From the NCBI RefSeq assembly GCF_044647545.1, contig NZ_CP172818.1: a DNA stretch of 64,000 nt, one strand, 5' to 3'. Positions 19,853-36,380 of this stretch are shown in pieces. A program made the translations under genes and the position numbers. Position 1 is the stretch's first letter. Every line of letters begins with the position of its first letter. The notes beneath the pieces are model-generated. The model was not told where the DNA came from, ran no database searches, and was given only the letters and a program-made list of their open reading frames with translations. The DNA comes from Escherichia coli (GTDB lineage Bacteria; Pseudomonadota; Gammaproteobacteria; Enterobacterales; Enterobacteriaceae).

Positions 19853-21103
19853 ATGGAAAGTAAAGTAGTTGTTCCGGCACAAGGCAAGAAGATCACCCTG
19901 CAAAACGGCAAACTCAACGTTCCTGAAAATCCGATTATCCCTTACATTGAAGGTGATGGAATCGGTGTAGATGTAACCCCAGCCATGCTGAAAGTGGTCG
20001 ACGCTGCAGTCGAGAAAGCCTATAAAGGCGAGCGTAAAATCTCCTGGATGGAAATTTACACCGGTGAAAAATCCACACAGGTTTATGGTCAGGATGTCTG
20101 GCTACCTGCTGAAACCCTTGATCTGATTCGTGAATATCGCGTTGCCATCAAAGGCCCGCTGACCACTCCGGTTGGTGGTGGTATTCGCTCTCTCAACGTT
20201 GCTCTGCGCCAGGAACTGGATCTCTACATCTGCCTGCGTCCGGTACGTTACTATCAGGGCACTCCAAGCCCGGTTAAACACCCTGAACTGACCGATATGG
20301 TTATCTTCCGTGAAAACTCGGAAGACATTTATGCGGGTATCGAATGGAAAGCAGACTCTGCCGACGCTGAGAAAGTGATTAAATTCCTGCGTGAAGAGAT
20401 GGGCGTGAAGAAAATTCGCTTCCCGGAACATTGCGGCATCGGTATTAAGCCGTGTTCTGAAGAAGGCACCAAACGTCTGGTTCGTGCAGCGATCGAATAC
20501 GCAATTGCTAACGATCGTGACTCTGTGACCCTGGTGCACAAAGGCAACATCATGAAGTTCACCGAAGGCGCGTTTAAAGACTGGGGCTACCAGCTGGCGC
20601 GTGAAGAGTTTGGCGGTGAACTGATCGACGGCGGCCCGTGGCTGAAAGTTAAAAACCCGAACACCGGCAAAGAGATCGTCATTAAAGACGTGATTGCTGA
20701 TGCATTCCTGCAACAGATCCTGCTGCGTCCGGCTGAATATGATGTTATCGCCTGTATGAACCTGAACGGTGACTACATTTCTGACGCCCTGGCAGCGCAG
20801 GTTGGCGGTATCGGTATCGCCCCTGGCGCAAACATCGGTGACGAATGCGCCCTGTTTGAAGCCACCCACGGTACTGCGCCGAAATATGCCGGTCAGGACA
20901 AAGTAAACCCAGGCTCTATTATTCTCTCCGCTGAGATGATGTTACGCCATATGGGCTGGACTGAAGCCGCAGACTTGATTGTTAAAGGTATGGAAGGCGC
21001 AATCAACGCCAAGACTGTAACCTATGACTTCGAACGTCTGATGGAAGGCGCTAAACTGCTGAAATGTTCAGAGTTTGGTGACGCGATCATCAAGAATATG
21101 TAA
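19853..21103 (+). CDS. icd: Isocitrate dehydrogenase (NADP) Icd
   Basis: 416 aa with motif NLNGDYISD. The last 161 nt lie inside the prophage-flanking direct repeat. Confidence 0.97.
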
Positions 21104-21154
21104 TTACTACATGTGTTAAATATTGTAACGGGCGTATAACACGCCCGTTGTTTT
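20943..21154 (+). repeat. Left 212-bp direct repeat (icd 3' end plus terminator; attL side)
   Basis: Reads identically to 36118-36329 in my base-by-base comparison. Confidence 0.9.
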
Positions 21155-21156
21155 TT
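21127..21156 (+). terminator. icd Rho-independent terminator (copy 1)
   Basis: 9-bp stem aacgggcgt/acgcccgtt, 5-nt loop, then a T6 run. Confidence 0.85.
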
Positions 21157-21172
21157 GTTAGGCTGCTAACGG

Positions 21173-21205
21173 TTATCAAAATTTTATCAAAAAAAGTTAT
21201 CAAAA
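21173..21205 (+). repeat. Three direct TTATCAAAA copies (candidate integrase arm-type sites)
   Basis: TTATCAAAA at 21173, 21184 and 21197, just inside the left junction. A fourth copy in the same orientation lies at 35988-35996 near the right junction. Confidence 0.45.
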
Positions 21206-21518
21206 CCCCTCGGTAGTTTTGGGGTAGGCTGGCCGGTCAGGTGGTAGTTCTACTACTAGTCTCCCACATAGATATTCCTTAGCTTTTTATTATTGCTGGC
21301 GGACGCTCGTTAATATTTAAGGTCTTCATTGATTAAGACATCCCCAAAGTTAGTTATGTATTCACTGTTATTAGGACAATTATGAATTACCACTCCTTAC
21401 ACCCGCTCAAATATTGTTAAATTGCCGGTTTTGTATCAACTACTCACCCGGGACTCGCCAGGGGACAGCCAACAGGCATTGGGTGCAATCACCTTAGCGT
21501 TCAGGTACATGCGGAATG

Positions 21519-21543
21519 TAAAAAAGGCCGCGAGCGCGGCCCC
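21519..21543 (-). terminator. Rho-independent terminator of ymfE-ymfD
   Basis: The minus strand reads ggccgc-gctc-gcggcc followed by T6. It lies about 55 nt 3' of the ymfD stop. Confidence 0.75.
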
Positions 21544-21596
21544 TTCACATACATCTTTAGTACTGAGACTGTTTAACCTAGGGAATTATTATCGTA

Positions 21597-22262
21597 TTAT
21601 ATTGCATTACAACTCCCAACAGTGACATATGAACTTCCTGCTTTACTCCACGACTTTAATATTTCAAGGCCATGTGAAGAACATATTTCTTGCACTGCGA
21701 GTTCATCGAGTAATCCATAGTAAGAAACACTTTTTGAATTTTTGTAAATGTATCCGTAAAGATGTTTTCTTCCTGTTTCGTATTTTTTGAAGTATGAGCT
21801 TTTATATTGATTTACAATAAGAGTCTCACCTCCTGATTTTAGTAATCTCTTGATGCTAAGAACTATTTTGTCGATTGTATCCCGACAAGGAACGGCAGAG
21901 AGAACATTAGAGCAAAGGATGAAATCGTAACCCCCAATTATTTTGTCGACATCCTCGAAAGCAACTGTATTTGCATTTTTATAATATCGTGGGACATAGT
22001 CAATAATTTTAGTTTTAATTCCTCTAATAATTTGCTCTCTTTCAAGTTGCCTTTTCGAGTCTAGAAAAGTAACTTCATCAAATTTACTGATTAATTCATC
22101 AGAATATCTAAGTTTTCCGCAGCCAAAATCAAGGGCGTGGCCATTTTTCTCAATGCTTCTAATATACTCGCAAAGATATCTAGAGGGCATCGTATGAGGT
22201 TTTGCTGCATTCTCTGAGCGAATATTAACTCCGTGCATATTATAGTTCAAAGCAAGTACCAT
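21597..22262 (-). CDS. ymfD: Class I SAM-dependent methyltransferase YmfD (substrate unknown)
   Basis: 221 aa. Motif I ALDFGCGKLRY, acidic post-I FLDS, motif IV-like FILCSNVL. Very AT-rich. Start abuts the ymfE stop (TGAATG). Confidence 0.85.
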   Translation of the reverse strand: MVLALNYNMHGVNIRSENAAKPHTMPSRYLCEYIRSIEKNGHALDFGCGKLRYSDELISKFDEVTFLDSKRQLEREQIIRGIKTKIIDYVPRYYKNANTVAFEDVDKIIGGYDFILCSNVLSAVPCRDTIDKIVLSIKRLLKSGGETLIVNQYKSSYFKKYETGRKHLYGYIYKNSKSVSYYGLLDELAVQEICSSHGLEILKSWSKAGSSYVTVGSCNAI

Positions 22263-22976
22263 TCAATTAATGTTATTTTTAGTGAAAAATTCTTTTATTT
22301 TATCGTCCGGGATTTTTCCGACTTGACTTTCAGTTCTGGGCTTAACTGTCAAAGCAAAGATAATACCACTCACTGAGAATGATAAAATTACAAAAAAGAA
22401 TAAAGACAGCAAAGAACCTTCAACATGAAAAATATCCATTTGTTTGCAAAAAAAGATTATTAGGAAGGAAATTAATGCAATTATCGAAAATTCAAAAAAT
22501 ATCCAAAAATAGTATACTTTATTCCAGAAGAGTTCAATATAATGTTTGTCTTCAATTTTTCTTACTTCAGGGTAATATAGATTGCTCATTACATTGTGAG
22601 CTTCATCTTTATTTAATTTTCTGTTGACTCCAGCTCTCCGTGATAACGGTTTTATAATTAGATGCTTATCCCAAAGATATCGCACCCGAAGTAGTTTGGC
22701 TGCATTGTTATGTAGGTCTAACGCACCGCTAATTAAATATGCAAAAATCGCAAAAGCACAAGGTAATATACCAAAAGATAGTGCCCAATTAATAAAGCTC
22801 TCATGATCTTTAATAGGTGGGACATACTTGGTTGGTAATGTTATTAAAGGGATGTATTCGTAAATAACTAGAAGTATGCAATATATTAGCGTATTTAAGA
22901 AAGTTGCTTTATGAAGTTTAGGCAACATTTCATTATAATTTTTGGGGGGTTCGAACATATTATTCACCTGAGTCAC
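22263..22976 (-). CDS. ymfE: Polytopic inner-membrane protein YmfE (function unknown)
   Basis: 237-aa ORF with about 4 hydrophobic helices and alternative Met starts within the first 7 codons. Translationally coupled to ymfD. Confidence 0.8.
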   Translation of the reverse strand: MTQVNNMFEPPKNYNEMLPKLHKATFLNTLIYCILLVIYEYIPLITLPTKYVPPIKDHESFINWALSFGILPCAFAIFAYLISGALDLHNNAAKLLRVRYLWDKHLIIKPLSRRAGVNRKLNKDEAHNVMSNLYYPEVRKIEDKHYIELFWNKVYYFWIFFEFSIIALISFLIIFFCKQMDIFHVEGSLLSLFFFVILSFSVSGIIFALTVKPRTESQVGKIPDDKIKEFFTKNNIN

Positions 22977-23168
22977 GCTTTAGGATAGTGTAATGGTAAT
23001 ATTTAATTAAGTGTCATTATATACTTTTCAGTAGGTTAGTTACAATTTTTTGTATCTGTTCAGGCTGACCTAGCTTCGCTGACAGACAATATTGTGATCA
23101 GTAGCACGTATCGAGGAGGAGTAGCGCTACAAATTTGACGCTGGGTGAGAATCTGAAATTGATAGAAA

Positions 23169-23232
23169 TGAAATAATGAAATAATGAAATGATGAAATGA
23201 TGAAATGATGAAATGATGAAATGATGAAATGA
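23169..23232. repeat. 8-bp tandem repeat, 8 copies (2 x TGAAATAA + 6 x TGAAATGA)
   Basis: Counted directly in the sequence. Lies in the divergent ymfE/lit intergenic region. Confidence 0.95.
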
Positions 23233-23424
23233 TGACAGAGTGTCCAGTGGGCACGGATGGTGTCTTACGACATGCTTACCTTAATCGTTCCCAGTGTGCC
23301 TATAGCAGATATTCTAAACATGTCGATAATTCATTACGCATATAGTATCGAACATAGAAAAAACTGAAGATTCATCTTATTTTGTATATACTACCTAGCC
23401 CAACAATGTAGAGGTTAACGAAAA

Positions 23425-24318
23425 ATGCGCTCACCAATTTGTCATCTTTTCTCAGCAATTAATTCATCACCATTTAAGATTGCACCAGAGAAGGAGCAAG
23501 ATCTTAAAACGATAGTTGACGACAAAAAAATTATAATTTCAGTTGTGAGTGAACCTGGTTTTAATATCCGAGTCAGGAAGAATGAGAGTAATAATTCACA
23601 TGAAATAGTTCTAACAGTAGCTTCACTTGAATATATTTGGGCATTTTCCAATTTCTTTTGGGTTTTTACGCAAGAGTACTCCAAATCTCAGAAAAATAAT
23701 GATGAGCACTTTGATTTAACAGGAAAAAATAGGCTTAAAAAGTCTGATGAACTTCTTAAATGGGCAAGGAAAAACTTGCAAACAACAGGTTGCGAATCAT
23801 GGCCTAAAAAATGTCCCAAGCCAGAAGCATATTTACAAGGAAGCGAAGACTCACAAGTTGCTAGCGAGATATTTCTTTGTGCTATTGCTTGGATTCTTCA
23901 TCATGAAATAAGTCATGTTGTTTTACAGCATCCATTGGTCACTACAGCATTCTCCACTCAAGAGGAGCGTGAAGCAGATTCACATGCTACAAAATGGATA
24001 TTAGGCAACCTGTATGAATCCGCTCCTGAATTAAAGAAACGTGCACTTGGCATTGCTACGGCAGTGCTTTGTATACAAAGCTTAGAAGTTGAAAATTACT
24101 TCTGTTTACAAAATACACACCCAGCTGCATATGAGCGTATATATTCGAATATTTCATGCTACCCTGTCGGAAATGAAGAGTTGATTGAAGCTCTATGTAC
24201 AGTGATGCTTCAATATCTTTTCCATGGCAAAAATATCAATGTGAATCTAGATGGGGAGTCCTTTTCATCGATTTTAGGTGATCTTCTCTGTGATATTTCA
24301 CGTCTTACCAGTAACTGA
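23425..24318 (+). CDS. lit: Lit: phage-exclusion zinc metalloprotease (cleaves EF-Tu during T4 late gene expression)
   Basis: 297 aa with HExxH motif (HHEISH). Recognised as e14 Lit. Confidence 0.92.
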   Translation: MRSPICHLFSAINSSPFKIAPEKEQDLKTIVDDKKIIISVVSEPGFNIRVRKNESNNSHEIVLTVASLEYIWAFSNFFWVFTQEYSKSQKNNDEHFDLTGKNRLKKSDELLKWARKNLQTTGCESWPKKCPKPEAYLQGSEDSQVASEIFLCAIAWILHHEISHVVLQHPLVTTAFSTQEEREADSHATKWILGNLYESAPELKKRALGIATAVLCIQSLEVENYFCLQNTHPAAYERIYSNISCYPVGNEELIEALCTVMLQYLFHGKNINVNLDGESFSSILGDLLCDISRLTSN

Positions 24319-24408
24319 TATGGCTGTCCGCCGCTCGCTTAAAGTGGACTTTTTAGTTTTTATCATGTGCGGTGAGAAATTCAATGTGGCGTTGAGATGC
24401 TTAAAGGT

Positions 24409-25536
24409 TCACAACGCTACTTTGCTCCATCCTTTACCTCGATCATCATGATAACGATCGGTTTGTTGTTGTGTTTTATGACCAAGTAGTTTTTGTGTGT
24501 CTAACCCCTGTTCTTTATACAGACGTTCAGATAAAGACCTTTGCTCATGGAATGTCGCAGGTGAACCCTCTCCCCAGTCAATTCTTGCTAAATCTCTCGC
24601 TTTACTAAAATTCATCGTCAATGTATTGGCTTTAACCTGCGCTCCGCGCTCTGCTTGTGAAGTTGAACGAAAAAAATGCACTAAGTATGCACTGACTGCA
24701 TAGTCACGGCAGCGGGCTACTACATCGCGTAAACTCCAGTTAATCGCATTGAGGCGAAGAGAAAGAGGAATTGCGATTTTGCTCCCGGTCTTTTCCTGAA
24801 TGACATGAAGATGATCATCCCAAATATCGCTAAATTTCATACGCGAAATATCACCTAACCGCTGACCAGTAACCAGCGCTAACAGCATGGCATTTCCCAT
24901 GTAACGATGAGTAGCGTCTGCGATATCGAAGATTTTTTTCCATTCTTCAAGGCTCAGCCGTTGTCGGGTAATTTTTCTTCTTGGTTGTTTAGTGGCTAAT
25001 GCTGGGTTATAGCCAGGAGGTACTTCTCCGTAGTGCTGCGCCTCTTTGAAAACATCAATCAGGACGGAGCGAACTACTTGTGCCATTCTTGGCCGCCCAG
25101 CGGCGATATACTCATCAAGCAATTGTGCTATATCTCTGACATCAACGGCTGAGATCAACTTCATTCCTGCTCGTTCTCTGAGCAAGGATACTGGTTTAGC
25201 TTTTTGTTTATAGGTGTTGAGTCTTATATCACCACTTTTAAGCCTGTCATCCTGGATCGCTTGATAGCGATCTAACCAGGTTGACGTTGTGATAGCCTTT
25301 CCTTTGCTGGTTGCGATCCTGTCACTGATAGCCAGAATCTGCCGGGTTCTTTGTTCAGCCAGGCGAGTGTTGGCCTCAGTGGCAATAGCGATAGCTTCAG
25401 CTTCGTTTGTTCCCAAAGCATGGAATTTTCCTGTCACTGGATGCTTATACCGCCAATAGACTTTATTTACCTTCCTACTATAAAGCGGATATAAGTTAGG
25501 GACTGAAACATTATTCTTACGCGGTCTGGCTGCCAT
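24409..25536 (-). CDS. intE: Tyrosine integrase IntE
   Basis: 375 aa. Catalytic pattern R (GQRLGD), HxxR (HEQRSL) and H...Y (GHKTQQQTDRY). Confidence 0.94.
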   Translation of the reverse strand: MAARPRKNNVSVPNLYPLYSRKVNKVYWRYKHPVTGKFHALGTNEAEAIAIATEANTRLAEQRTRQILAISDRIATSKGKAITTSTWLDRYQAIQDDRLKSGDIRLNTYKQKAKPVSLLRERAGMKLISAVDVRDIAQLLDEYIAAGRPRMAQVVRSVLIDVFKEAQHYGEVPPGYNPALATKQPRRKITRQRLSLEEWKKIFDIADATHRYMGNAMLLALVTGQRLGDISRMKFSDIWDDHLHVIQEKTGSKIAIPLSLRLNAINWSLRDVVARCRDYAVSAYLVHFFRSTSQAERGAQVKANTLTMNFSKARDLARIDWGEGSPATFHEQRSLSERLYKEQGLDTQKLLGHKTQQQTDRYHDDRGKGWSKVAL

Positions 25537-25762
25537 TACTCAAAATCCGTTGCAAAAGTAATGAGTCATTTTTCTTGATTACAGGTGTTACCAACTCCCC
25601 AACTAACTCGGCGTCCTCACGCACTCGCCATAACCGGCCTTGTTTCATGGCCGGTGGACAAAATAAATTCTGCTTAGCATAACGACGCAATGTGGACACA
25701 CTTGGAGGATTACTTCTGTATTTTTCAGCAGCCCATTCTTCAAGAGTTAACATTTGAAGCAT
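25517..25762 (-). CDS. xisE: Excisionase XisE
   Basis: 81-aa small HTH-type protein. 20-nt overlap with the intE start. Confidence 0.85.
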   Translation of the reverse strand: MLQMLTLEEWAAEKYRSNPPSVSTLRRYAKQNLFCPPAMKQGRLWRVREDAELVGELVTPVIKKNDSLLLQRILSNGSQTA

Positions 25763-25829
25763 ATGCGATCACCTTATTACTACACTAACTGCTTAGTCTC
25801 ATCATATCGACCCTGCAAGGCCGATTAGT

Positions 25830-26120
25830 TTCTCCACAAAACAGAGAAGAACACCTGCGGCGGCAGCCGCCCGGATGGATTGGGTTATGAGCCCGTCGTC
25901 CGGTGATGCTCTTCTCTGTTTTGTAAAAAGGACGGTACCAGCCTGAAGCAAGGGTACAAACTGGTACCGCCAGGACTACACACAGCATAAAGTTGTGGTG
26001 CCGGGTGCCTCCCGGTGCCTGGCGAAGGTTGCACACCAGACGGGTGGGTATCCACAGAAGGTCGACTGTCAGCCTCAACCTTAACCCGCGTGCGCTGAGC
26101 CGCATTCACCACAACGCTAA
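25830..26120. other. GC-rich, stem-dense non-coding island (candidate structured RNA or leader)
   Basis: Perfect pairings at 25836-25850/25910-25924 (15 bp), 25933-25941/25961-25969 (9 bp), 25992-26000/26107-26115 (9 bp) and 26025-26031/26076-26082 (7 bp). Only overlapping low-quality ORFs are present. Confidence 0.3.
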
Positions 26121-26228
26121 GGATTCTCTTTGGTTGAAAATACTTAGCTGTTATGTGCCTGTCTTTTCACCACTTCAGGCTCGGTGGTATGCTGGAGTTC
26201 TCACACAGCCAGCAAGCAAGGAAACTTA

Positions 26229-26570
26229 ATGAACCAGTTTTATGTTCACGTTCGTCTATTTGAAGACACAGCCGAACAGACCAAAAAATTTGAAGAATTA
26301 ATGCTTAACTTTCTGTACCAGAAAACAGTTAAAGAGTCTGACGATAGCTGCTGCAGACTGATTCCAGAGGGATATATCCTCAAAAGTACAATGAACTGCC
26401 AACAAATCCTTGATCAAACATTTTCAATTGCTAACAGTGCCGGTGTTGACGCAAATATATTTGTCTGTAAATTTGAACAAAGCGCATGCTTACTTCCGTC
26501 TGCTTCCTTAGTTGGTAACGATTTCGTTCATTACGATCTTACGCCTAAGCCCATCAAGCTCGATTCTTAA
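26229..26570 (+). CDS. ymfI: Prophage protein YmfI (function unknown)
   Basis: Track ORF trimmed to ATG 26229 (MNQFYVHVRLFED), 113 aa. Confidence 0.7.
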   Translation: MNQFYVHVRLFEDTAEQTKKFEELMLNFLYQKTVKESDDSCCRLIPEGYILKSTMNCQQILDQTFSIANSAGVDANIFVCKFEQSACLLPSASLVGNDFVHYDLTPKPIKLDS

Positions 26571-26816
26571 AGCCTTAACCATTGTGTCGTGATAAACACG
26601 GCTCACCTTCTCTCCATTGCATGGCAGAGGGGTGAGTGTGTTAGCCATGAAATTCATGAACTCGGTTCGACCAGGGGCTTGCGCCCCGCAAGTCTTTAAT
26701 GCCTGTTTTGCTAACAAAATGCGGGCCTCAGTGCCTGCATTTGGCTCTATCTGCTGCAAACGTTTAGCGTCTTCCAGCAACAATGCGATCACATGCTTCA
26801 AATTCTGCTCATTCAT
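26508..26816 (-). CDS. ymfJ: Prophage protein YmfJ (function unknown)
   Basis: 102-aa ORF. Its 3' end overlaps ymfI convergently by 63 nt. Confidence 0.7.
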   Translation of the reverse strand: MNEQNLKHVIALLLEDAKRLQQIEPNAGTEARILLAKQALKTCGAQAPGRTEFMNFMANTLTPLPCNGEKVSRVYHDTMVKALRIELDGLRRKIVMNEIVTN

Positions 26817-26923
26817 CTATTCTCTCCACTGAAATCATCCGCTAACGAATCATCCCGGTCTTCGTACGTACCGGGCGGGCTACTTCGTGGGCGTCCTGCC
26901 TGTTTGTTGTTTCTCTTGGGTAC

Positions 26924-26952
26924 ATTATGTATCTCAAAGGTACATTGTCAAG
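26924..26952 (-). promoter_or_regulatory. Near-consensus sigma70 promoter reading toward ymfJ
   Basis: Minus strand: TTGACA (26952-26947), 17-nt spacer, CATAAT (26929-26924). Two ATGTACC repeats overlap it. Confidence 0.55.
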
Positions 26953-26953
26953 T

Positions 26954-26978
26954 ATAAAAAAACCTGCCGAAGCAGGTT
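26954..26978 (-). terminator. Rho-independent terminator of cohE
   Basis: The minus strand reads aacctgc-ttcg-gcaggtt followed by a T-run, directly 3' of the cohE stop. Confidence 0.75.
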
Positions 26979-26990
26979 CATAAACATTGA

Positions 26991-27665
26991 TTAGGCTTTG
27001 ATTTTGTATCTTCTTGGTTTTCCTGAGAAAATCACAGTACCAATTATAGAGCAATTACCGTTGATCTTAATGTAAGGCTCAGGCCAGTTTGGGTTTAACG
27101 CTTTGAGATAACGCTGTGTCCCATCTTCTATCAACCTTTTGAAGGTGGTTTCACCTGTATCGTGCATCAATGCAATAACGTCGTCACCGTGGCAGGCAGG
27201 TACTTCAGGATCGACAAAAATCATGTCTCCCGGGCGGTACTCATCAATCATTGAATCACCTATTACCCGCAAGATATAAGTCATTTCCCCACAGGGTACA
27301 GGGCAGGGATACGTTTCTGCTGTGCTCAAATCAACCTCAGAATATCCAACTTCTTTCCATGCTCCGGCCTGTACCCATGATATGACAGGGACTAATGTGA
27401 TTTGTTTATTAGTGATTGAAACATCAGGTTTTTTTGTGATGTTCGTTGTCTGGTGTTCTTGATCGAGCCATCCTACAGGCAGGTCGAAACATTTTTCGAT
27501 GTGTCGTGCCATGCTGTCACCGATATTTTTAGTAGCACCATCTCCCATAAACCTGCTGGTCTGGGTTGGCTCGCGATCAATCATAGTGGCAAAGGAAGAA
27601 TTCCCGCCAACACCATCTCTCAGTTTTCTGGCGTTAGACCGCCGGATGTCATGGATTGTTTTCAT
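26991..27665 (-). CDS. cohE: CI-like prophage repressor CohE (HTH + S24 self-cleaving peptidase)
   Basis: 224 aa. Cleavage-type Ala-Gly in WVQAGAW. Ser/Lys dyad motifs GDSM and FKRL. Confidence 0.9.
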   Translation of the reverse strand: MKTIHDIRRSNARKLRDGVGGNSSFATMIDREPTQTSRFMGDGATKNIGDSMARHIEKCFDLPVGWLDQEHQTTNITKKPDVSITNKQITLVPVISWVQAGAWKEVGYSEVDLSTAETYPCPVPCGEMTYILRVIGDSMIDEYRPGDMIFVDPEVPACHGDDVIALMHDTGETTFKRLIEDGTQRYLKALNPNWPEPYIKINGNCSIIGTVIFSGKPRRYKIKA

Positions 27666-27680
27666 AACGAAATTAAAACC

Positions 27681-27701
27681 CTTGTACCGTTAAGGTACAA
27701 G
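27681..27701. promoter_or_regulatory. Operator-like palindrome (TGTAC-N7-GTACA class)
   Basis: cttgtacc-gttaa-ggtacaag, with perfect 8-bp arms, in the cohE/croE divergent region. Confidence 0.6.
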
Positions 27702-27731
27702 TATCTTGAAGGTTCATTTCAATCATGTAAT

Positions 27732-27750
27732 ATGTACACCGGAGGTACAT
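27732..27750. promoter_or_regulatory. Operator-like palindrome (TGTAC-N7-GTACA class)
   Basis: atgtac-accggag-gtacat overlaps the croE Shine-Dalgarno GGAGG. Confidence 0.6.
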
Positions 27751-27755
27751 ATTGT

Positions 27756-27956
27756 ATGAAAGCGTATTGGGACTCTTTAACCAAAGAACAGCAGGGCGAG
27801 TTGGCCGGAAAAGTTGGCTCAACACCTGGCTACTTACGGCTGGTTTTCAATGGCTATAAAAAAGCCAGTTTTGTGCTGGCTAAAAAACTTGAGCAATACA
27901 CATCAGGTGCAATTACGAAATCTGACTTAAGACCGGATATCTATCCGAAAGATTAG
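27756..27956 (+). CDS. croE: Cro-like repressor CroE
   Basis: 66-aa tail of track ORF 27453-27956, starting at ATG 27756 after GGAGG. Divergent from cohE. Confidence 0.8.
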   Translation: MKAYWDSLTKEQQGELAGKVGSTPGYLRLVFNGYKKASFVLAKKLEQYTSGAITKSDLRPDIYPKD

Positions 27957-27987
27957 CAGAACACTTTCAATTTTTAACCACAGAACG

Positions 27988-28554
27988 ATGAGGCTAATCG
28001 TGGGTAAGCATCACTGGAAAATAGAAAAACAGCCTGAGTGGTACGTGAAAGCTGTCAGAAAAACTATCGCGGCGTTGCCGAGTGGTTACGCTGAAGCGGC
28101 TGACTGGCTCGATGTAACAGAAAACGCTTTATTCAACCGCCTTCGTGCAGATGGCGATCAGATTTTCCCGCTGGGATGGGCAATGGTTTTACAGCGTGCT
28201 GGTGGCACTCACTTCATTGCTGATGCTGTGGCGCAGTCTGCAAATGGCGTCTTTGTGTCTCTTCCTGACGTCGAGGATGTGGACAACGCCGATATTAACC
28301 AGCGTCTGCTGGAAGTCATTGAACAGATCGGCAGTTATTCAAAACAGATTCGTTCAGCAATCGAAGACGGTGTAGTGGAACCGCATGAGAAGACAGCAAT
28401 TAACGACGAGCTGTATCTCTCAATTTCGAAGCTGCAGGAGCATGCAGCACTTGTCTACAAAATTTTTTGCATTTCAGAAAGTAACGCCCGCGAGTGTGCA
28501 GCTCCGGGCGTCGTGGCGTCGATTGCTTCTGGTTGTGGAGAAACTAACGCATGA
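27988..28554 (+). CDS. ymfL: Prophage regulatory protein YmfL (CII-like)
   Basis: 188-aa ORF, first gene after croE. Start choice is uncertain. Confidence 0.75.
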
Positions 28555-28889
28555 ACAGTTTAACAACACACTACCGTCGCTCGCAACTGATTGCACTTCC
28601 TGTACCGGGTGGAAAAGCGAAGGTGGAGTATTGCTATGCAGTGAATGTACCAGGTGACAGGGAAATTGTAACCCACAGCTTTGCAGAGTGGGCTGTGGGT
28701 GATTTCAACCGGCAGAAGGAGACAGTCCTTTGCGACAAGTTAACCGCTGGTTCAAAGATCACTACGGAGTGCCCGTCAGAGTCATTCGTTGGGAGCCGGA
28801 AACACAACGGGTTATCTACCTCCGTGAAGGCTATGAACATGAATGCTTCAGTCCGGTCGAACAGTTTCGTCGTAAATTCAGGGAAATAG
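28551..28889 (+). CDS. ymfM: YmfM, prophage cell-division inhibitor candidate
   Basis: 112 aa with a 4-nt overlap with ymfL. Recognised as e14 YmfM. Confidence 0.75.
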
Positions 28890-28898
28890 AGGTCGGTC

Positions 28899-30266
28899 AT
28901 GAGCACTAAATTAACCGGCTATGTATGGGATGGTTGCGCTGCATCAGGCATGAAGTTATCCAGCGTGGCAATTATGGCCCGCCTGGCTGATTTCAGTAAT
29001 GACGAAGGTGTGTGCTGGCCATCAATTGAAACCATTGCCCGTCAGATTGGCGCGGGGATGAGTACCGTCAGAACGGCTATCGCACGGCTGGAAGCAGAAG
29101 GCTGGTTAACGCGTAAGGCGCGTCGCCAGGGTGATGGTTCATCACCCCACTGTGCGGTGGTGGATGAATATCACGAGCACGCCACCGATGCGCTTTATAC
29201 CACGATGCTTACCGGGATGGGGGCGCGACGTCAGCCACTGATGTGGGCCATCACCACCGCCGGGTACAACATTGAGGGGCCGTGCTACGACAAGCGGCGG
29301 GAAGTTATCGAGATGCTCAACGGTTCGGTACCCAACGATGAACTGTTCGGGATCATCTATACCGTTGACGAAGGCGATGACTGGACCGACCCGCAGGTGC
29401 TGGAAAAAGCCAACCCGAATATTGGCGTGTCGGTTTATCGCGAATTTTTGTTAAGTCAGCAGCAGCGTGCGAAAAATAACGCCCGTCTGGCAAACGTCTT
29501 TAAAACAAAACACCTCAATATCTGGGTGTCGGCGCGTTCGGCGTATTTCAACCTGGTGAGCTGGCAGAGCTGCGAGGATAAATCACTGACCCTTGAGCAG
29601 TTCGAGGGGCAGCCGTGCATTCTGGCCTTTGACCTGGCGCGTAAGCTGGATATGAACAGCATGGCGCGACTTTATACCCGCGAGATTGACGGTAAAACGC
29701 ATTACTACAGTGTGGCCCCGCGTTTCTGGGTACCGTATGACACGGTGTACAGCGTCGAGAAAAATGAAGATCGCCGGACAGCCGAACGCTTTCAGAAATG
29801 GGTGGAAATGGGCGTTCTGACTGTTACCGCTGGTGCGGAGGTGGATTATCGCTACATCCTCGAGGAGGCCAAAGCGGCGAACAAAATCAGCCCGGTCAGT
29901 GAGTCACCCATCGACCCCTTCGGGGCGACCGGGCTGTCGCATGACCTTGCTGATGAAGACCTGAACCCCATCACCATCATTCAGAACTACACCAACATGT
30001 CCGATCCGATGAAAGAGCTGGAAGCGGCGATTGAATCGGGGCGCTTTCATCATGACGGCAATCCCATCATGACCTGGTGTATCGGCAACGTGGTCGGCAA
30101 AACCATTCCGGGTAACGATGATGTGGTGAAGCCTGTCAAGGAGCAGGCGGAAAACAAAATCGATGGTGCGGTTGCACTGATTATGGCGATTGGCAGAGCA
30201 ATGCTGTACGAGAAAGAAGACACGCTGTCTGACCACATTGAGTCCTATGGGATCCGCTCGCTTTAA
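28899..30266 (+). pseudogene. oweE: Fusion of an HTH replication-type N-terminus to the C-terminal part of a terminase large subunit (oweE/ymfN)
   Basis: Residues 1 to about 88 form a winged-HTH-like segment ([16 protein letters not shown]). From [10 protein letters not shown] onward the protein is terminase-like and has no Walker A region. Confidence 0.8.
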
Positions 30267-30276
30267 CTGAGGTAAT

Positions 30277-30444
30277 TATGATCATGCTGATTCTCCGCCT
30301 CTGGTGGGCGGCGGTGCTTTTGCTGGCGTATGGTGCCGCTCATTTATCCCCCGGGGGTTTTGTTCCCGGGGCGTTGTGCCTGTTCTGGTCGTTGCTGGTG
30401 GCGCGAATCTGTTCGACACAGTCGTCTGTCGGCGGAGGTAAATA
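30277..30444 (+). CDS. ymfR: Small hydrophobic prophage protein (ymfR-like)
   Basis: My own translation gives 55 codons ([21 protein letters not shown]...), below the track cutoff. Lies between terminase and portal remnants. Confidence 0.4.
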
Positions 30445-30860
30445 GTGTTCTTTTCGGGATTATTTCAACGAAAAAGCGACGCACCGGTGACCACGCCAGC
30501 AGAGCTGGCGGATGCCATCGGGTTGTCCTACGACACCTATACCGGAAAGCAGATCAGCAGCCAGCGGGCCATGCGACTGACGGCGGTTTTTTCCTGTGTC
30601 AGGGTGCTGGCAGAGTCGGTCGGGATGTTGCCTGCAATCTGTATCACCTGAACGGCAGCCTGAAACAGAGAGCCACGGCGAGCGTCTGCATAGCTGATCT
30701 CCACGCATCCCAATGGCTATATGACGCCGCAGGAGTTCTGGGAGCTGGTGGTCACCTGTCTGTGCCTGCGGGAAACTTTTACGCCTACAAAGTGAAAGCA
30801 TTTGGCGAAGTGGCTGAAACTGCTGCCCGTCGATCCCGGCTGTGTGGTATATGCGCTGGG
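30445..30860 (+). pseudogene. beeE: Portal protein N-terminal remnant (beeE)
   Basis: GTG ORF MFFSGLFQRKSD...RAMRLTAVFSCVRVLAESVG is portal-like. Portal-like text continues in other frames (MTPQEFWELVV...GNFYAYKVKAFGEVAE), so it is frameshifted and then truncated. Confidence 0.7.
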
Positions 30861-31633
30861 AAGGTGTCAGCGATGGCCTGAAGGTGACCGCCGGGAGTGT
30901 TATTCAGCGCGATGACCTGGTGCAGTACACGACAACTGACGATGCAACCAGCTCCGGTGGTGTCCTGCGCGTGCCGATCACTTGCTCAACTACAGGCGCG
31001 GTCGGTAACGCTGACGACGGTACGGCATTAATCCTGGTCACGCCGGTGAATGGTCTGCCGTCTTCCGGTGTTGCAGATACCCTGACTGGCGGATTTGATA
31101 CTGAAGAGCTGGAAACGTGGCGCGCCCGCGTCATTGAGCGGTATTACTGGACGCCTCAGGGCGGGGCTGACGGGGACTATGTCGTCTGGGCTAAAGAAGT
31201 GTCAGGCATTACCCGTGCATGGACATACCGCCACTGGATGGGAACGGGGACTGTCGGTGTGATGATTGCCAGCAGTGACCTGATTAATCCCATTCCGGAA
31301 GAATCAACGGAAACGGCGGCAAGACAACACATTGAGCCACTGGCCCCGGTGGCAGGCTCTGATTTGTATGTATTCAGGCCGGTGGCGCATAAAGTGGATT
31401 TTCATATCCGCGTGACGCCGGACACACCGGAAATACGGGCTGCCATCACCGCGGAGTTGCGTTCGTTCCTGCTGCGTGATGGTTATCCGCAGGGAGAACT
31501 GAAGGTATCGCGTATCAGTGAGGCGATTTCCGGTGCGAACGGGGAATACAGCCATCAGTTGCTTGCACCGGCAGACAATATCTCCATTGCAAAAAATGAA
31601 CTGGCGGTTCTGGGGACGATTTCATGGACGTGA
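30842..31633 (+). pseudogene. jayE: Baseplate J-like protein, C-terminal fragment (jayE)
   Basis: 263-aa ORF lacking the N-terminal half of J-like baseplate proteins and abutting the portal remnant. Confidence 0.7.
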
Positions 31634-32208
31634 CAAACGATGATTACATCCGCCTGTTATCGGCACTGTTGCCGCCCGGTCCTGCATGGTCAGCCAGCGA
31701 TCCGGCGATTGCCGGTGCGGCACCTTCATTAACCCGCGTTCATCAGCGTGCGGATGCCCTGATGCGGGAGCTGGATCCGCGCACCACCACTGAACTGATA
31801 AACCGCTGGGAGCGTCTGTGCGGTCTGCCGGATGAATGTATTCCCGCAGGGACACAGACCCTTCGCCAGCGTCAGCAACGGCTGGATGCGAAGGTTAATC
31901 TGGCGGGCGGCATCAATGAGGATTTTTACCTTGCACAGCTTGCTGCCCTGGGCAGACCAGACGCCACTATCACGCGATACGATAAAAGCACGTTCACCTG
32001 CTCATCGGCCTGTACTGACGCAGTGAATGCGCCGGAATGGCGGTATTACTGGCAGGTCAACATGCCAGCCGCCACCAACACCACCTGGATGACATGTGGC
32101 GATCCCTGTGATTCCGCACTGCGTATCTGGGGCGACACCGTTGTCGAGTGCGTGCTTAACAAACTCTGCCCTTCGCATACCTACGTAATTTTTAAATATC
32201 CGGAGTAA
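31624..32208 (+). CDS. ymfQ: Tail/baseplate protein YmfQ (Mu gp48 / P2 I-like)
   Basis: 194 aa. Overlaps the jayE stop and immediately precedes the tail-fibre gene. Confidence 0.8.
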
Positions 32209-32211
32209 TCC

Positions 32212-32841
32212 ATGCATCGTATAGACACGAAAACCGCGCAGAAGGATAAGTTCGGCGCGGGTAAGAACGGTTTTACCCGTGGTAACCCCCAGACCGGCAC
32301 ACCTGCCACCGATCTGGATGATGACTACTTTGACATGTTGCAGGAAGAACTTTGTAGCGTGGTGGAGGCCTCCGGTGCCAGCCTGGAGAAAGGGCGGCAT
32401 GACCAGATGCTTACCGCACTTCGTGCGCTGCTGTTAAGCCGCAAGAATCCGTTTGGCGATATCAAATCGGATGGCACTGTGCAAACGGCTCTCGAAAACC
32501 TTAGTTTAGGAGAAGGAGCAAAACTCAATGCAGCAACGGCTACATTAGGACGCACCGGTTTCATAGCTATACCGGTTATGATTGGTGGTATTGAGCAATC
32601 AGTAATCATTCAGTGGGGGTGGAATGCCGCAAAAGCATCTGCCTCTGGGGGGGATGGAAATACAGTTGTATTCCCGGTTGCGTTTAATAATGCCTGTGTT
32701 GCCGTTGTTGCAAATTATGACAATGTCAGCGCACCTATCAATGCAGTGGCAACGGGGGGATATACAACCACTTCGTTTTTATTACGGTGCGCAGCTCAAA
32801 CGGGTAGTTATTACTATAACTGGATTGCTATTGGGTATTAA
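32212..32841 (+). CDS. stfP: Side tail fibre protein StfP (constant N-terminus joined to the currently expressed variable C-terminus)
   Basis: 209 aa. The crossover site lies inside the gene at codons for ALENLSLGEG. Confidence 0.85.
   Translation: MHRIDTKTAQKDKFGAGKNGFTRGNPQTGTPATDLDDDYFDMLQEELCSVVEASGASLEKGRHDQMLTALRALLLSRKNPFGDIKSDGTVQTALENLSLGEGAKLNAATATLGRTGFIAIPVMIGGIEQSVIIQWGWNAAKASASGGDGNTVVFPVAFNNACVAVVANYDNVSAPINAVATGGYTTTSFLLRCAAQTGSYYYNWIAIGY
32489..32514. other. Pin/Gin/Hin-type 26-bp crossover site (left)
   Basis: Its reverse complement TTCTCCTAAACT-AA-GGTTTTCGAGAG is inverted relative to the right site and shares the central AA. Confidence 0.8.
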
Positions 32842-32842
32842 G

Positions 32843-33319
32843 ATGAAAATATACTGTTGCTTAAATACCGTTGGTTTTTTTATGGATGGCTGTGGCGTCA
32901 TTCCGCCAGATTCTAAAGAAATAACGGCAGAACACTGGCAGTCATTATTAAAATCTCAAGCTGAAGGAGGCGTGATCGATTTTTCTGTTTTTCCTCCTTC
33001 TATTAAAGAGGTTATCCGTACTCATGATGATGAAGTCGCAGATGCGAACTTTCAAAAGCAGATGCTTATCTCTGATGCAACTGATTTTATCAATAGCAGA
33101 CAGTGGCAGGGTAAGGCTGCATTGGGAAGACTTAAAGAAGATGAGCTGAAACAATCTGATTTGTGGGCTGGATTATCTGGACGCACTGGCGCTGGTCGAT
33201 ACCGCCAGTGCGCCGGATCTGAATGGCCTACGCCTCCGGCAGTTCAGGCCAGTAAATATCCGGTACAGTGCTGGTATCCGTTGCCATCACCGCGTCAATG
33301 TAATCCAGCACGGCGTTAA
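32843..33319 (+). CDS. tfaP: Tail fibre assembly protein TfaP, apparently damaged near the C-terminus
   Basis: Starts at MKIYCCLNTVGFFMDGCGV. The conserved Tfa motif LDYLDALALVDTASAPDL is encoded in the +1 frame at 33168-33221, between in-frame conserved flanks. Confidence 0.6.
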   Translation: MKIYCCLNTVGFFMDGCGVIPPDSKEITAEHWQSLLKSQAEGGVIDFSVFPPSIKEVIRTHDDEVADANFQKQMLISDATDFINSRQWQGKAALGRLKEDELKQSDLWAGLSGRTGAGRYRQCAGSEWPTPPAVQASKYPVQCWYPLPSPRQCNPARR

Positions 33320-33830
33320 GTCGGGTGTTTTCTGTCTGCGTCAGCTTCCTCCCGGCCTGCAATTTCAGTTGAATCAGACTAATTGAAGCCATTGCAGTAT
33401 CAATCAGTGACTGGCGCTGTGCTTCTGCCGCTTCTATTGCGGCACCGTATTGTGCCTCGGTATCGGTTACCCATTTCTCACCATCCCATTTATCGTATGG
33501 TGTTAACGGAGCGATAGTGGTCATATTTTCAGGGTAATCCCCTGGCGCTGTGATTTCTTTTGGTTCTCCCGTTTCGGTGCTATAAACAATTTCACCGCGA
33601 TGGTCTGGCACATATTTCCACGAGTTCAAATCCGTTGAGCGGCAAATTGCATAACCCGTTTTATGTGTACCAGGTGCATCTAAACAAGAACATGCCGGGA
33701 TACCGACACCGACAGCAAGATATTCGGTTGATGTTGAGATATATTCCTGTGTCCCATTATCATAGTTATAAACGGTAATATCCCCTGCCTTTACCGCGAT
33801 CAGCGCATCATTTAATACAGCTCCACCCAT
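33228..33830 (-). CDS. tfaE: Tail fibre assembly protein TfaE
   Basis: 200 aa with conserved C-terminus LDYIDAVMATDTSTVPDIYWPELPEA. Its ATG overlaps the stfE stop (TAATG). Confidence 0.9.
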   Translation of the reverse strand: MGGAVLNDALIAVKAGDITVYNYDNGTQEYISTSTEYLAVGVGIPACSCLDAPGTHKTGYAICRSTDLNSWKYVPDHRGEIVYSTETGEPKEITAPGDYPENMTTIAPLTPYDKWDGEKWVTDTEAQYGAAIEAAEAQRQSLIDTAMASISLIQLKLQAGRKLTQTENTRLNAVLDYIDAVMATDTSTVPDIYWPELPEA

Positions 33831-34335
33831 TATGCAGCCCTCACGATATAATTAAATGAAATATTTCGTGGACGTGATTCGTTACCGAATTTATCTGAAC
33901 CATCAGTATTTCTCGCTGAATATGTTTGGAGGATTGTCCCTGATGATGGATTCGCATTATATTCATTTGTTCCTGCTGGATAGTATGACATTGCACTATT
34001 GTCATCTTTGAAAACAGCAGACATCAATCCATCACCACCACTTCCGTAAGCAGTTGTAAGAAATGACGGTGATCGAAAGAAAGACTATTTTGTGCCGAAA
34101 GTAAGGGAACGACCAGAATCTACCCCGCGCCCATCATCCCAGCCACGAATAAACTCACCACGTAAATCAGGCAATTTATTTGTCGGGTAAGCCTTCGCCA
34201 GTTTTGGATATTCAACGGCAGAAAAAGCCGCACCGTTGCATTTCAGCCAGCCAGTAGGCGGTGTGGCTGAAGGCCACGGAACAGGCACACCAACGGGTAA
34301 TGCCGAACCTTCTCCCAAACCAAGGTTTATGAAAA
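33830..34335 (-). pseudogene. stfE: Silent alternative tail-fibre C-terminal cassette StfE, with in-frame TAG
   Basis: Begins at the right crossover site (LGLGEGSALPVG). Track ORFs 34085-34390 and 33830-34027 are in one frame, interrupted only by TAG at 34085-34087. Confidence 0.8.
34310..34335. other. Pin/Gin/Hin-type 26-bp crossover site (right)
   Basis: TTCTCCCAAACC-AA-GGTTTATGAAAA, about 55 nt upstream of the pinE ATG. Confidence 0.85.
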
Positions 34336-34388
34336 TGCGGAATAAGCGGCAAATGGCATCATTCCTGCTTTTGTCAGGGAGAGCTACC

Positions 34389-34941
34389 ATGCTTATTGGC
34401 TATGTATGTGTGTCAACAAATGACCGAAACACAAATCTACAGCGTAATGCGCTGAACTGTGCAGGATGCGACTCATTTTTGAAGACAAGATAAGCGGTAC
34501 AAAGTCTGAAAGGCCGGGACTGAAAAAACTGCTCAGGACATTATCGGCAGGTGACACGCTGGTGGTCTGGAAACTGGACCGGCTGGGGCGTAGTATGCGG
34601 CATCTGGTCATTCTGGTTGAGGAGTTGCGCGAACGTGGCGTTAATTTTCGCAGCCTAACAGATGCTATTGATATCAGCACATTCGATGGGGCGTTTTTCT
34701 TTATGTGATGGGGGCCTTGGCTGAAATTGAGCGTGAACTGATTGTTGAACGAACAAAAGCTGGACTGGAAACTGCTCGTGCACAGGGACGAATTGGTGGA
34801 CGTCGTCCCAAACTTACACCAGAACAATGGGCACAAGCTGGACGATTAATTGCAGCAGGAACTCCTCGCCAGAAGGTGGCGATTATCTATGATGTTGGTG
34901 TGTCAACTTTGTATAAGAGGTTTCCTGCAGGGGATAAATAA
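34389..34941 (+). pseudogene. pinE: Serine DNA invertase PinE, inactivated
   Basis: Split over three frames (track ORFs ending 34493, 34708, 34941) by single-base losses near 34470 and 34702. The N-terminus reads YVCVSTNDRN where invertases have YVRVSTNDQN. Confidence 0.88.
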
Positions 34942-35047
34942 AGTTAAAGACACTTTGTGTACAAAAGAAAGTAAAACAACAGCAACTTGTTGCAATTTTA
35001 TCAATAAAAGTAGTATTGTCGTGAAAAATTGATTAAAGATTAATATT

Positions 35048-35881
35048 ATGCATGTTTTTGATAATAATGGAATTGAACTGAAAGCTGAGTGTTCGATAGG
35101 TGAAGAGGATGGTGTTTATGGTCTAATCCTTGAGTCGTGGGGGCCGGGTGACAGAAACAAAGATTACAATATCGCTCTTGATTATATCATTGAACGGTTG
35201 GTTGATTCTGGTGTATCCCAAGTCGTAGTATATCTGGCGTCATCATCAGTCAGAAAACATATGCATTCTTTGGATGAAAGAAAAATCCATCCTGGTGAAT
35301 ATTTTACTTTGATTGGTAATAGCCCCCGCGATATACGCTTGAAGATGTGTGGTTATCAGGCTTATTTTAGTCGTACGGGGAGAAAGGAAATTCCTTCCGG
35401 CAATAGAACGAAACGAATATTGATAAATGTTCCAGGTATTTATAGTGACAGTTTTTGGGCGTCTATAATACGTGGAGAACTATCAGAGCTTTCACAGCCT
35501 ACAGATGATGAATCGCTTCTGAATATGAGGGTTAGTAAATTAATTAAGAAAACGTTGAGTCAACCCGAGGGCTCCAGGAAACCAGTTGAGGTAGAAAGAC
35601 TACAAAAAGTTTATGTCCGAGACCCGATGGTAAAAGCTTGGATTTTACAGCAAAGTAAAGGTATATGTGAAAACTGTGGTAAAAATGCTCCGTTTTATTT
35701 AAATGATGGAAACCCATATTTGGAAGTACATCATGTAATTCCCCTGTCTTCAGGTGGTGCTGATACAACAGATAACTGTGTTGCCCTTTGTCCGAATTGC
35801 CATAGAGAATTGCACTATAGTAAAAATGCAAAAGAACTAATCGAGATGCTTTACGTTAATATAAACCGATTACAGAAATAA
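35048..35881 (+). CDS. mcrA: McrA, HNH endonuclease restricting modified-cytosine DNA
   Basis: 277 aa. C-terminal HNH region CENCGK...HHVIPLSSGGADTTDNCVALCPNCHRELH. Confidence 0.93.
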   Translation: MHVFDNNGIELKAECSIGEEDGVYGLILESWGPGDRNKDYNIALDYIIERLVDSGVSQVVVYLASSSVRKHMHSLDERKIHPGEYFTLIGNSPRDIRLKMCGYQAYFSRTGRKEIPSGNRTKRILINVPGIYSDSFWASIIRGELSELSQPTDDESLLNMRVSKLIKKTLSQPEGSRKPVEVERLQKVYVRDPMVKAWILQQSKGICENCGKNAPFYLNDGNPYLEVHHVIPLSSGGADTTDNCVALCPNCHRELHYSKNAKELIEMLYVNINRLQK

Positions 35882-36117
35882 AATTATTTATTAAAGTCAC
35901 ATTTAAGACGTAATACCCTACAGGGTAAAAATTTTCTCTGATCTTAACTTCTGCAAATGTTAACTGCTATTTTTATGCTAAAAATGGTTATCAAAACTCA
36001 AAAACACATGTTTATAATCAATGAGTTATAGAAATGCTAAGGGCTAATGAGTTATATGCAAATTAGTAAAATTATGTTGCTATGTCAGATAGTTACGATT
36101 TAGTCATCTAACTAATG

Positions 36118-36277
36118 TACGCCATATGGGCTGGACTGAAGCCGCAGACTTGATTGTTAAAGGTATGGAAGGCGCAATCAACGCCAAGACTGTAACCTAT
36201 GACTTCGAACGTCTGATGGAAGGCGCTAAACTGCTGAAATGTTCAGAGTTTGGTGACGCGATCATCAAGAATATGTA
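36118..36277 (+). pseudogene. icdC: Displaced icd 3' fragment (icdC)
   Basis: Identical to icd 20943-21103 and lacks the 5' 1.1 kb of the gene. Confidence 0.9.
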
Positions 36278-36329
36278 ATTACTACATGTGTTAAATATTG
36301 TAACGGGCGTATAACACGCCCGTTGTTTT
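36118..36329 (+). repeat. Right 212-bp direct repeat (attR side)
   Basis: Identical to 20943-21154. Includes the terminator hairpin at 36302-36324. Confidence 0.9.
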
Positions 36330-36380
36330 ATTTATGTGGGTATTATTAATAGCACATTGAGCATATTTATATGAAGCCCA

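Follow-up and report, generated by a model that had tools for sequence, protein, structure and literature searches.

Why do the two copies of the icd 3' end that flank an e14 prophage in this Escherichia coli chromosome agree at every position, when those of K-12 differ? The K-12 icd::e14 insertion and its icd/icdC pair, described by Hill, Gray & Brody (1989) and Brody & Hill (1988) as relayed in PMC13626634 and PMC4759930, show 28 differences over 212 nt (12 coding, 16 downstream). K-12 icd and icdC are also distinguished by two residue changes, D398E and D410E (sequence comparison; PMC4759930), just as a sequence-only reading of the locus had stated. In the window analyzed here, meaning the whole stretch of 64,000 nucleotides, the corresponding count is zero. 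Most probably the phage-borne copy was homogenised by homologous recombination; the main rival is an element that already matched its host at entry.

The region is the cryptic prophage e14, which occupies its canonical site at the icd 3' end and has a copy of that end at each junction (Table 1); the boundaries are the same as in K-12. It was rightly recognized from the letters alone as an e14-type prophage flanked by the duplicated icd end and terminator. The prophage has a G+C content of 45% (51% in the left flank) and is 97.1% identical to K-12 e14 over 99% of the query. Its gene order over about 15 kb is ymfD-ymfE-lit-intE-xisE ... ymfK ... pinE-mcrA, and YmfD and YmfE, like both proteins of the IntE/XisE recombination module, are 100% identical to their K-12 counterparts. 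The late genes show truncations and fusions as in K-12 e14, including portal and baseplate fragments and a single 455-aa match (99% identity) to the K-12 ymfN fusion region. The insertion site, the homology boundaries (ATG...CCCGTTGTTTT), the gene order and the defective architecture are thus common to both: this is the defective 15-kb e14 known from K-12, down to its gene fusions and fragments, and it is non-infectious. Unlike K-12 e14, the window element has an attR core lacking one T, a frameshifted pinE and a disrupted ymfH. The match to K-12 e14 is a mosaic: 21155-25500, about 26500-28000 and 35000-36116 contain no difference, and 30000-34999, the tail-fibre and invertible/invertase region, diverges by 4-25%. 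A closer e14, or a donor of this divergent tail region, was sought in 5,426 complete genomes, and none was closer than K-12. An Rfam scan of 19000-38000 returned no family match. YmfK (the LexA-like repressor), IntE and XisE are intact; SOS-inducible excision and reintegration are putative properties of the element.

Table 1. Features of the icd-e14 region, in window coordinates.
Feature	Position	Strand	Basis or comparison
icd, isocitrate dehydrogenase, 416 aa	19853-21103	+	ORF list; last 161 nt inside left repeat
attL core, ATGTTACGCCA	20939-20949	+	counterpart of K-12 11-bp crossover core ATGCTGCGCCA
Left repeat copy (attL side; icd 3' end, stop codon, terminator)	20943-21154	+	212/212 = right copy
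icd predicted intrinsic terminator hairpin, left copy, then T run	21125-21151	+	terminator scan
e14-family cryptic prophage, unique DNA (14,963 nt)	21155-36117	.	
lit, cell-death peptidase	23425-24318	+	protein 100% = K-12 Lit
intE, tyrosine integrase	24409-25536	-	100% = K-12 IntE over 375 aa
xisE, excisionase	25517-25762	-	100% = K-12 XisE over 81 aa
ymfK, LexA-like e14 repressor	26991-27665	-	protein 100% = K-12 YmfK; annotation
pinE invertase, pseudogene in three reading-frame pieces	34389-34938	+	K-12 PinE tblastn, different frames, 71-96% identity; indels
mcrA, 5-methylcytosine-specific endonuclease	35048-35881	+	protein 100% = K-12 McrA
attR core minus one T, ATG-TACGCCA, 10 nt rather than 11	36115-36124	+	sequence comparison
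Right repeat copy (attR side)	36118-36329	+	212/212 = left copy
icdC pseudogene fragment	36118-36278	+	tblastn match to Icd residues 364-416
Second icd terminator hairpin copy	36300-36326	+	sequence same as 21125-21151
iraM, first chromosomal gene past element	36381-36704	-	97% = K-12 IraM

Exact comparison and a repeat finder both matched 20943-21154 with 36118-36329 at 212/212 positions. The perfect 212-bp repeat reported in the sequence-only reading is therefore real, and the alignment of both segments that it had called for gave zero mismatches. The two copies start 15,175 nt apart. Without a gap, identity stops at both edges and extends not one base further on either side; permitting a 1-nt gap adds three bases, ATG, to the match at the left edge. 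Both copies consist of 161 nt from the end of icd, TAA included, followed by 51 nt with the terminator hairpin and the first Ts, and both encode the same C-terminal peptide. As the copies are identical throughout, the crossover point cannot be read within the 212 nt, which agrees with what had been said of it before.

The hairpin within the 51 nt after the icd stop reads GTAACGGGCGT-ATAAC-ACGCCCGTTGT, followed by the first Ts. With a stem of 10-11 bp, a 5-nt loop and a T run, it has the features of a predicted intrinsic (Rho-independent) terminator, and the RNA fold of the left copy has a centroid energy of -15.8 kcal/mol (z = -2.1). At first, 13 other junctions (IMG/VR, metagenomes, GTDB and K-12) suggested that the hairpin type could tell host from phage origin, since in 13/13 of them the K-12 phage-borne hairpin (AACGGGAGCGTAACGCTCCCGTT) adjoins the e14 P' arm. 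As a clean marker it was rejected: the window-type hairpin stands beside a P'-like arm in at least 170 natural genomes and is also carried by free phage 21-family genomes, both of which count against it.

Like phage 21 and other lambdoids that integrate in icd, the element brings with it a copy of the final ~161 nt of the gene and of the terminator, and so leaves icd intact after integration. This phage-borne target-gene end and terminator, typical of phage 21, is the left repeat in the window. The left repeat is thus the element-side copy that now serves as the working end of icd, and the right repeat (icdC) is the host's end of the gene, displaced by the insertion. Chance need not be considered for two identical copies of 212 nt; the relevant yardstick is how far the copies diverge in other carriers of icd prophages, and in four of these they differ at 28, 11, 18 and 12 of 212 positions. 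(Two copies of the icd end occur in roughly 1,900 complete genomes.) Of the four, the first is K-12 and the second is strain BS-04, whose e14 has an attL copy that is neither of the K-12 type nor of the type of its own attR. The third, strain PAR, has a lambdoid remnant with sitABCD at icd and a duplicated icd end, and shares with the window the start of the e14 P' arm, being otherwise a different prophage; the fourth, strain NDM1, has a complete lambdoid prophage at icd, again a different one, with a duplicated icd end. PAR, NDM1 and the window have the same Icd protein (WP_000444487.1). A divergent element-borne icd end, by which integration or excision changes two Icd residues, is not what the window has, with its 0 differences; divergent copies are a property of the K-12 lysogen and not of the e14 family (11 differences in BS-04).

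The host chromosome, from E. coli, hardly differs from those of e14-free ST648-type strains. Its flanks show 99.98% identity to e14-free ST648, with 0 indels and 8 SNPs over about 38 kb, and no difference right up to both element boundaries; on the right, the first 3.8 kb from 36118 are identical and the first SNP lies at 39917. The icd gene itself has 0 nucleotide differences from ST648, and its protein is 99.5% identical to K-12 Icd, D398E and E414K being the sole differences. The empty site rebuilt from the window, 1212 nt long, is present with 100% identity in at least 40 e14-free genomes. Since the rebuilt site matches e14-free genomes and the flanks match ST648, both 212-nt copies are the lineage's own icd allele, and the comparison with e14-free alleles that had been proposed earlier identifies them with the native single-copy form. 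The working icd end is phage-borne in K-12, whereas in the window it is the host's native allele (E398, K414). The gene bears no scar from the insertion because its native C-terminus and terminator have been rebuilt exactly. Import of e14 by homologous recombination in the flanks was also considered and rejected, the flanks being free of donor DNA.

The accuracy of these flanks bears on the idea that assembly or polishing let one near-repeat copy overwrite the other while the true copies differ, which we regard as barely credible. Suspicious left-anchored changes in the icd-end block of some public K-12-like assemblies lend it some colour; however, flanks that over about 38 kb depart from ST648 by no indel and just 8 SNPs indicate an accurate assembly, the element does not reproduce any reference, copies with 8-30 differences would assemble separately, and a 1-nt indel directly outside the repeat distinguishes the two junctions.

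The same flanks fit site-specific integration, being without donor DNA and identical to ST648 up to both boundaries, and they favor a match at entry. According to this explanation, which is possible but on the unlikely side, an e14 circle whose icd segment already equalled the host allele integrated via IntE at the core, with no later change; a previous host carrying that allele would have homogenised it or been its source. The BS-04 attL copy shows that e14 travels with varied copies, and copies encoding IIKNM with the same hairpin are common on other icd prophages and free phages. However, an exact 212/212 match would be needed, and the window icd-end allele is found at ≥99% identity in only 86/5,425 genomes; among the matches listed for genomes with this allele there was no closer e14. 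Phage 21 and its relatives ev017, 4A7 and Perceval carry in their attP the same icd 3' segment and terminator with the same boundaries, and no phage-borne copies are closer to that of the window than those of this phage family, which differ from it at 8-10 positions. The copies in free phage genomes are 94-96.7% identical to the window copy and none matches it fully; these phages differ from the window element in being complete, in their P' arm (int adjoins attP) and in their P arms. The exact window copy is absent from 13 other e14-type attL/attP junctions and from 18 other P-arm junctions, and none of the phage, IMG/VR, metagenome and genome junctions examined carries it. The element would still have to be homogenised beforehand in a host with this allele, which shifts the mechanism and does not replace it, and e14 lacks head genes, so that a helper or another transfer route would be needed.

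The window copy differs from the copy of K-12 e14 itself at 30/212 positions, whereas the e14 DNA adjoining the two copies matches K-12 e14 without a single difference for 4.3 kb on the left side and for 1.1 kb on the right side. Because e14 DNA identical to that of K-12 abuts a copy with 30 differences, the replaced segment ends exactly at the homology boundaries, as is expected of homology-driven exchange. On sequence grounds, native-allele copies beside K-12-identical e14 DNA point to replacement by homologous recombination rather than a lucky match. We therefore think it probable that the element-side copy differed at first and that homologous recombination then overwrote it with the host allele. 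This could have occurred by gene conversion of the element-side copy from the attR copy, or by its exchange with the same allele from e14-free relatives; either route would leave an element-side copy equal to the host allele over the whole homology block. Of the two origins offered in the sequence-only reading, conversion-type replacement is thus favored, and "very recent integration of a phage" would require another vehicle, since the element is defective and not infectious.

The attL copies found in nature combine host-like with phage-like stretches in a mosaic, and exchange at the icd-end block is therefore frequent. Wang, Whittam and Selander reportedly found in 1997 that host and phage-borne segments had exchanged the 3' ~165 bp of icd repeatedly. 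That picture fits the mosaic alleles found here, and the window is its end state, in which both copies of a lysogen are fully identical; no description of such complete identity was found in the accessible literature. Several observations weigh against homogenisation. Conversion of the whole 212 nt from a K-12-type copy leaves at most 11 nt of flanking identity per end, which is awkward for a single RecA event; conversion would be easier from an incoming copy that was already similar, such as that of BS-04, which has 8 differences, the last of them some 30 nt short of the end. BS-04 itself has an e14 with a non-K-12 copy unlike its own attR, and therefore elements with host-like copies move between hosts. 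The sole within-pedigree partial tracts from icdC to icd (RP437 and clone 5A; PD007 and BHUCD02) may be artefacts of read mapping or reference-guided assembly. Several tract-bearing assemblies have MG1655-like lengths, which suggests reference-guided assembly, and the 4-SNP tract of RP437 and 5A, whose SNPs are also listed in PMC13626634 (Table 1), is precisely the pattern expected of reads that come from a subpopulation without e14 after its excision. These left-anchored tracts, considered as a graded series of conversion in K-12-like genomes, were accordingly down-weighted. The direction and timing of homogenisation are not readable from one sequence.

The empty sites bear on a further alternative, in which the ancestor of the ST648-like clade already had an e14 whose ends were homogenised, and all sampled relatives have lost it through IntE/XisE or through RecA across the repeat, so that the window preserves the ancestral state. 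Exact loss by either route would yield the empty site found in the relatives, and K-12 e14 excises readily on SOS induction (PMC13626634). However, none of the listed genomes that share the identical empty site, at least 40 in number, has e14, the occurrence of e14 segments with 100% identity to K-12 and BS-04 despite unrelated backgrounds speaks for a recent horizontal spread, and homogenisation would still be required; this relic scenario is highly improbable.

The homogenised ends have consequences for how the element might leave. In K-12, e14 has an 11-bp core (Fig. 3 legend of PMC4759930, interpreting Hill et al. 1989), and crossover takes place within it, at the left edge (PMC4759930, PMC13626634). 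An 11-nt core, in the CTG or TTA form, is present in 18/18 other e14 P-arm junctions examined (the TTA form in 7/18). In the window, the attL and attR cores are not one identical 11-bp sequence; the 1-nt deletion at attR, just outside the repeat and overlooked in the earlier reading, is unique to the window among 19 e14 junctions. Because the attR core lacks one T, IntE/XisE excision of the window element may be impaired or mutagenic; if strand exchange took place to the left of the attR indel, excision would put a frameshift into icd (ATGTACGCC). The identical 212-nt direct repeat is a plausible, putative RecA substrate, and RecA-dependent crossing-over anywhere within it would restore the ancestral site exactly (ATGTTACGCC, icd intact).

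The use of icd by e14 is already textbook, the element and the site are known, and the variation is modest. What the window contributes is a natural lysogen whose duplicated gene end shows no difference at all and equals the host's own allele. Tentatively, and as a combination that we consider doubtful, the host allele overwrote the phage-borne icd end after integration, the attR T was then lost, IntE/XisE excision became blocked, and clean loss is now left only to RecA acting in the 212-nt repeat. If this joint reading is true, the locus would represent concerted evolution of an att duplication and a natural switch from site-specific to homology-dependent excision. The core mutation separates the two routes of loss and, combined with the identical ends, offers a clean genetic test of the shares of RecA and integrase in wild prophage loss. 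The window is a concrete case of phage-borne gene ends and host alleles homogenising at a known recombination hot spot. In practice this matters because icd serves as an MLST locus, and the 3' end of the gene is prone to such exchanges.

Exact comparison and a repeat finder confirmed the perfect 212-bp direct repeat that the sequence-only reading had claimed around the prophage: the two copies match at 212 of 212 positions, and ungapped identity extends not one base further on either side. Each copy holds the final 161 nt of icd with its TAA stop, followed by 51 nt comprising a hairpin (GTAACGGGCGT/ATAAC/ACGCCCGTTGT) and the first Ts, contents likewise described earlier and borne out by the icd coordinates, a terminator scan and an RNA fold. 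The same C-terminal Icd peptide is encoded by both copies.

Positions of features at and within the e14 element in the window
Feature	Coordinates	Remark
icd	19853-21103	from the ORF list
Left repeat copy (attL)	20943-21154	working icd end
Right repeat copy (attR)	36118-36329	icdC fragment
attR core	36115-36124	one T missing relative to attL
stfE, tail-fibre gene adjoining pinE	33830-34390	only 56% identity to K-12
pinE, invertase	34389-34938	split into three frames by three frameshifting indels

Outside e14, the window shares 99.98% identity with ST648, a strain that has no e14, with three mismatches in 17.7 kb of left flank (none in icd), one in the first 8.3 kb of right flank, and no indel in 38 kb of flank except for the T absent from the attR core. 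This last observation speaks against an assembly artefact as the source of the repeat identity, which is very improbable. When the empty site was rebuilt by joining 20443-21154 to 36330-36829, it was found at 100% identity, as a single piece of 1212 nt, in at least 40 e14-free genomes; the 212-nt segment itself occurs at ≥99% identity in only 86 of 5,425 genomes. Both copies equal the single icd end of those e14-free genomes, in the comparison of alleles that had been proposed as a check. Together with the ST648-like flanks, this match indicates that both copies are this lineage's native icd end and that e14 arrived without accompanying donor DNA. Two other differences from ST648 were observed: at ~19630-19645, between rluE and icd, the arrangement is K-12-like and 1.5 kb inserted in ST648 (with a DUF1493 gene and one of the STM2901 family) is absent from the window, and at 44372-45959, within an autotransporter adhesin gene, 1.6 kb is swapped for an equally long divergent segment (best ~68% identity) in surroundings 99.97% identical to ST648.

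Other prophages at icd have the same arrangement with unlike copies. The K-12 icd/icdC pair has the boundaries seen in the window but differs at 28/212 positions, 12 coding (giving D398E and D410E, in line with the two C-terminal changes, not named there, that the sequence-only reading mentioned) and 16 downstream, including another hairpin. The copies differ at 11 positions in the e14 of the chicken isolate BS-04, 18 in PAR (a lambdoid remnant with sitABCD) and 12 in NDM1 (a complete lambdoid prophage), compared with none in the window. Among free phages, the attP of phage 21, ev017 and relatives holds the corresponding icd-end segment, bounded identically, at 94-96.7% identity to the window copy; the exact window copy was found in none of these, nor at 13 other e14-type P'-arm junctions (IMG/VR, metagenome contigs, a GTDB representative genome, K-12, BS-04) or 18 other P-arm junctions (IMG/VR contigs, K-12 and BS-04 included). 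The compared icd ends are patchworks of stretches that they share, in keeping with the turnover by recombination at the 3' end of icd reportedly described by Wang, Whittam & Selander in 1997. A second icd-end copy is present in ~35% of complete E. coli genomes (7,350 places in 5,425 genomes). Icd protein WP_000444487.1 is annotated in the unrelated strains PAR, X14-3, NDM1, ST648 and BHUCD02, whether icd finishes in the host copy or in copies of different prophages.

According to passages on K-12 e14 excision (PMC4759930; PMC13626634; citing Hill et al. 1989, Brody & Hill 1988), crossover takes place at the left edge, within a core of 11 bp (ATGCTGCGCCA); therefore, the left copy is the element's and the right copy the host's. 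The left copy of the window differs from that of K-12 at 30/212 positions, while the e14 DNA abutting both copies is identical to K-12; the replaced stretch thus appears to end precisely at the limits of homology, the signature of homology-dependent exchange. Since the flanks lack donor DNA, e14 probably entered through IntE at the core, which would leave the host's own icd end at attR, so that attL alone requires explanation. The element-borne copy would then have been overwritten by homologous recombination, either through gene conversion from the attR copy or with e14-free relatives supplying the same allele. Of the two origins offered by the sequence-only reading, gene conversion or recent entry of a matching phage, such overwriting is favoured with some confidence, and matching entry ranks second. 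One-step conversion of a K-12-type copy is awkward, as the identity remaining on either flank would be just ~11 nt; conversion would be easier from an already similar copy such as the BS-04 type (8 differences, the last ~30 nt from the end). The main rival, that e14 had picked up precisely this copy in a previous host that shared the allele, is possible but clearly less probable, and still requires homogenisation somewhere; an ancestral e14 subsequently lost from all sampled relatives is unlikely. The left part of attL carries partial tracts of icdC type in RP437, lab clone 5A, PD007 and BHUCD02. The K-12-derived assemblies RP437 and 5A, in which e14 is present, have the first four icd/icdC markers at attL switched to icdC type and an unaltered attR, reflecting either true gene conversion or an artefact of mapping caused by e14-excised cells. 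Such tracts would be direct evidence of conversion if real, but count as weak because they may be artefacts of mapping or reference-guided assembly.

With a 1-nt gap, three more bases match at the left edge of the repeat, where the attL core is ATGTTACGCCA and the attR core ATG-TACGCCA. This missing T is the sole case among 19 e14 P-arm junctions, the other 18 all having 11 nt (CTG form in 11, TTA form in seven). Tyrosine recombinases require matching overlap regions, so the deletion may impair excision by IntE/XisE.

Between the copies lie 14,963 nt of cryptic prophage e14, closest to that of K-12 (97.1% identical across 99% of the query); a search of 5,426 complete genomes of E. coli gave no closer e14. 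Gene order is as in K-12 (ymfD, ymfE, lit, intE, xisE, ymfH-L, fused or truncated late genes, the invertible tail-fibre segment, pinE, mcrA), and IntE, XisE, YmfK, Lit, McrA, YmfD, YmfE, YmfI, YmfJ and YmfT are 100% identical to the K-12 proteins; ymfH is disrupted. With pinE split and stfE divergent, the P region, invertible in principle, is probably locked. Upstream of lit, 23160-23247 carries ~10 copies of a tandem 8-nt unit (ATGAAATG / ATGAAATA), an array identical to that of K-12. The element is a mosaic relative to K-12, with no differences at 21155-25500 (ymfD to intE), ~26500-28000 (ymfI to ymfT) and 35000-36116 (mcrA), and 4-25% divergence with many small indels at 30000-34999. Over 21353-25353 and 34853-35853, the BS-04 e14 matches those of the window and K-12 without a difference; it diverges from 26853. 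Because segments are identical in three unrelated host backgrounds and neighbouring ones are 4-25% apart, recent horizontal spread of a defective e14 plus mosaic recombination is suggested.

Both e14 and its icd site are already known; what varies here, modestly but genuinely, is that the two ends are perfectly identical and of host type and that the attR core carries a deletion. In this lysogen, icd is restored with its exact native C-terminus and terminator. If strand exchange occurs left of the indel, excision is predicted to bring a frameshift into icd; the deletion may make excision mutagenic. The identical 212-nt direct repeats, 15 kb apart, are a plausible candidate substrate for RecA-dependent precise deletion, whose product would equal the site of e14-free relatives and bear no distinguishing mark.
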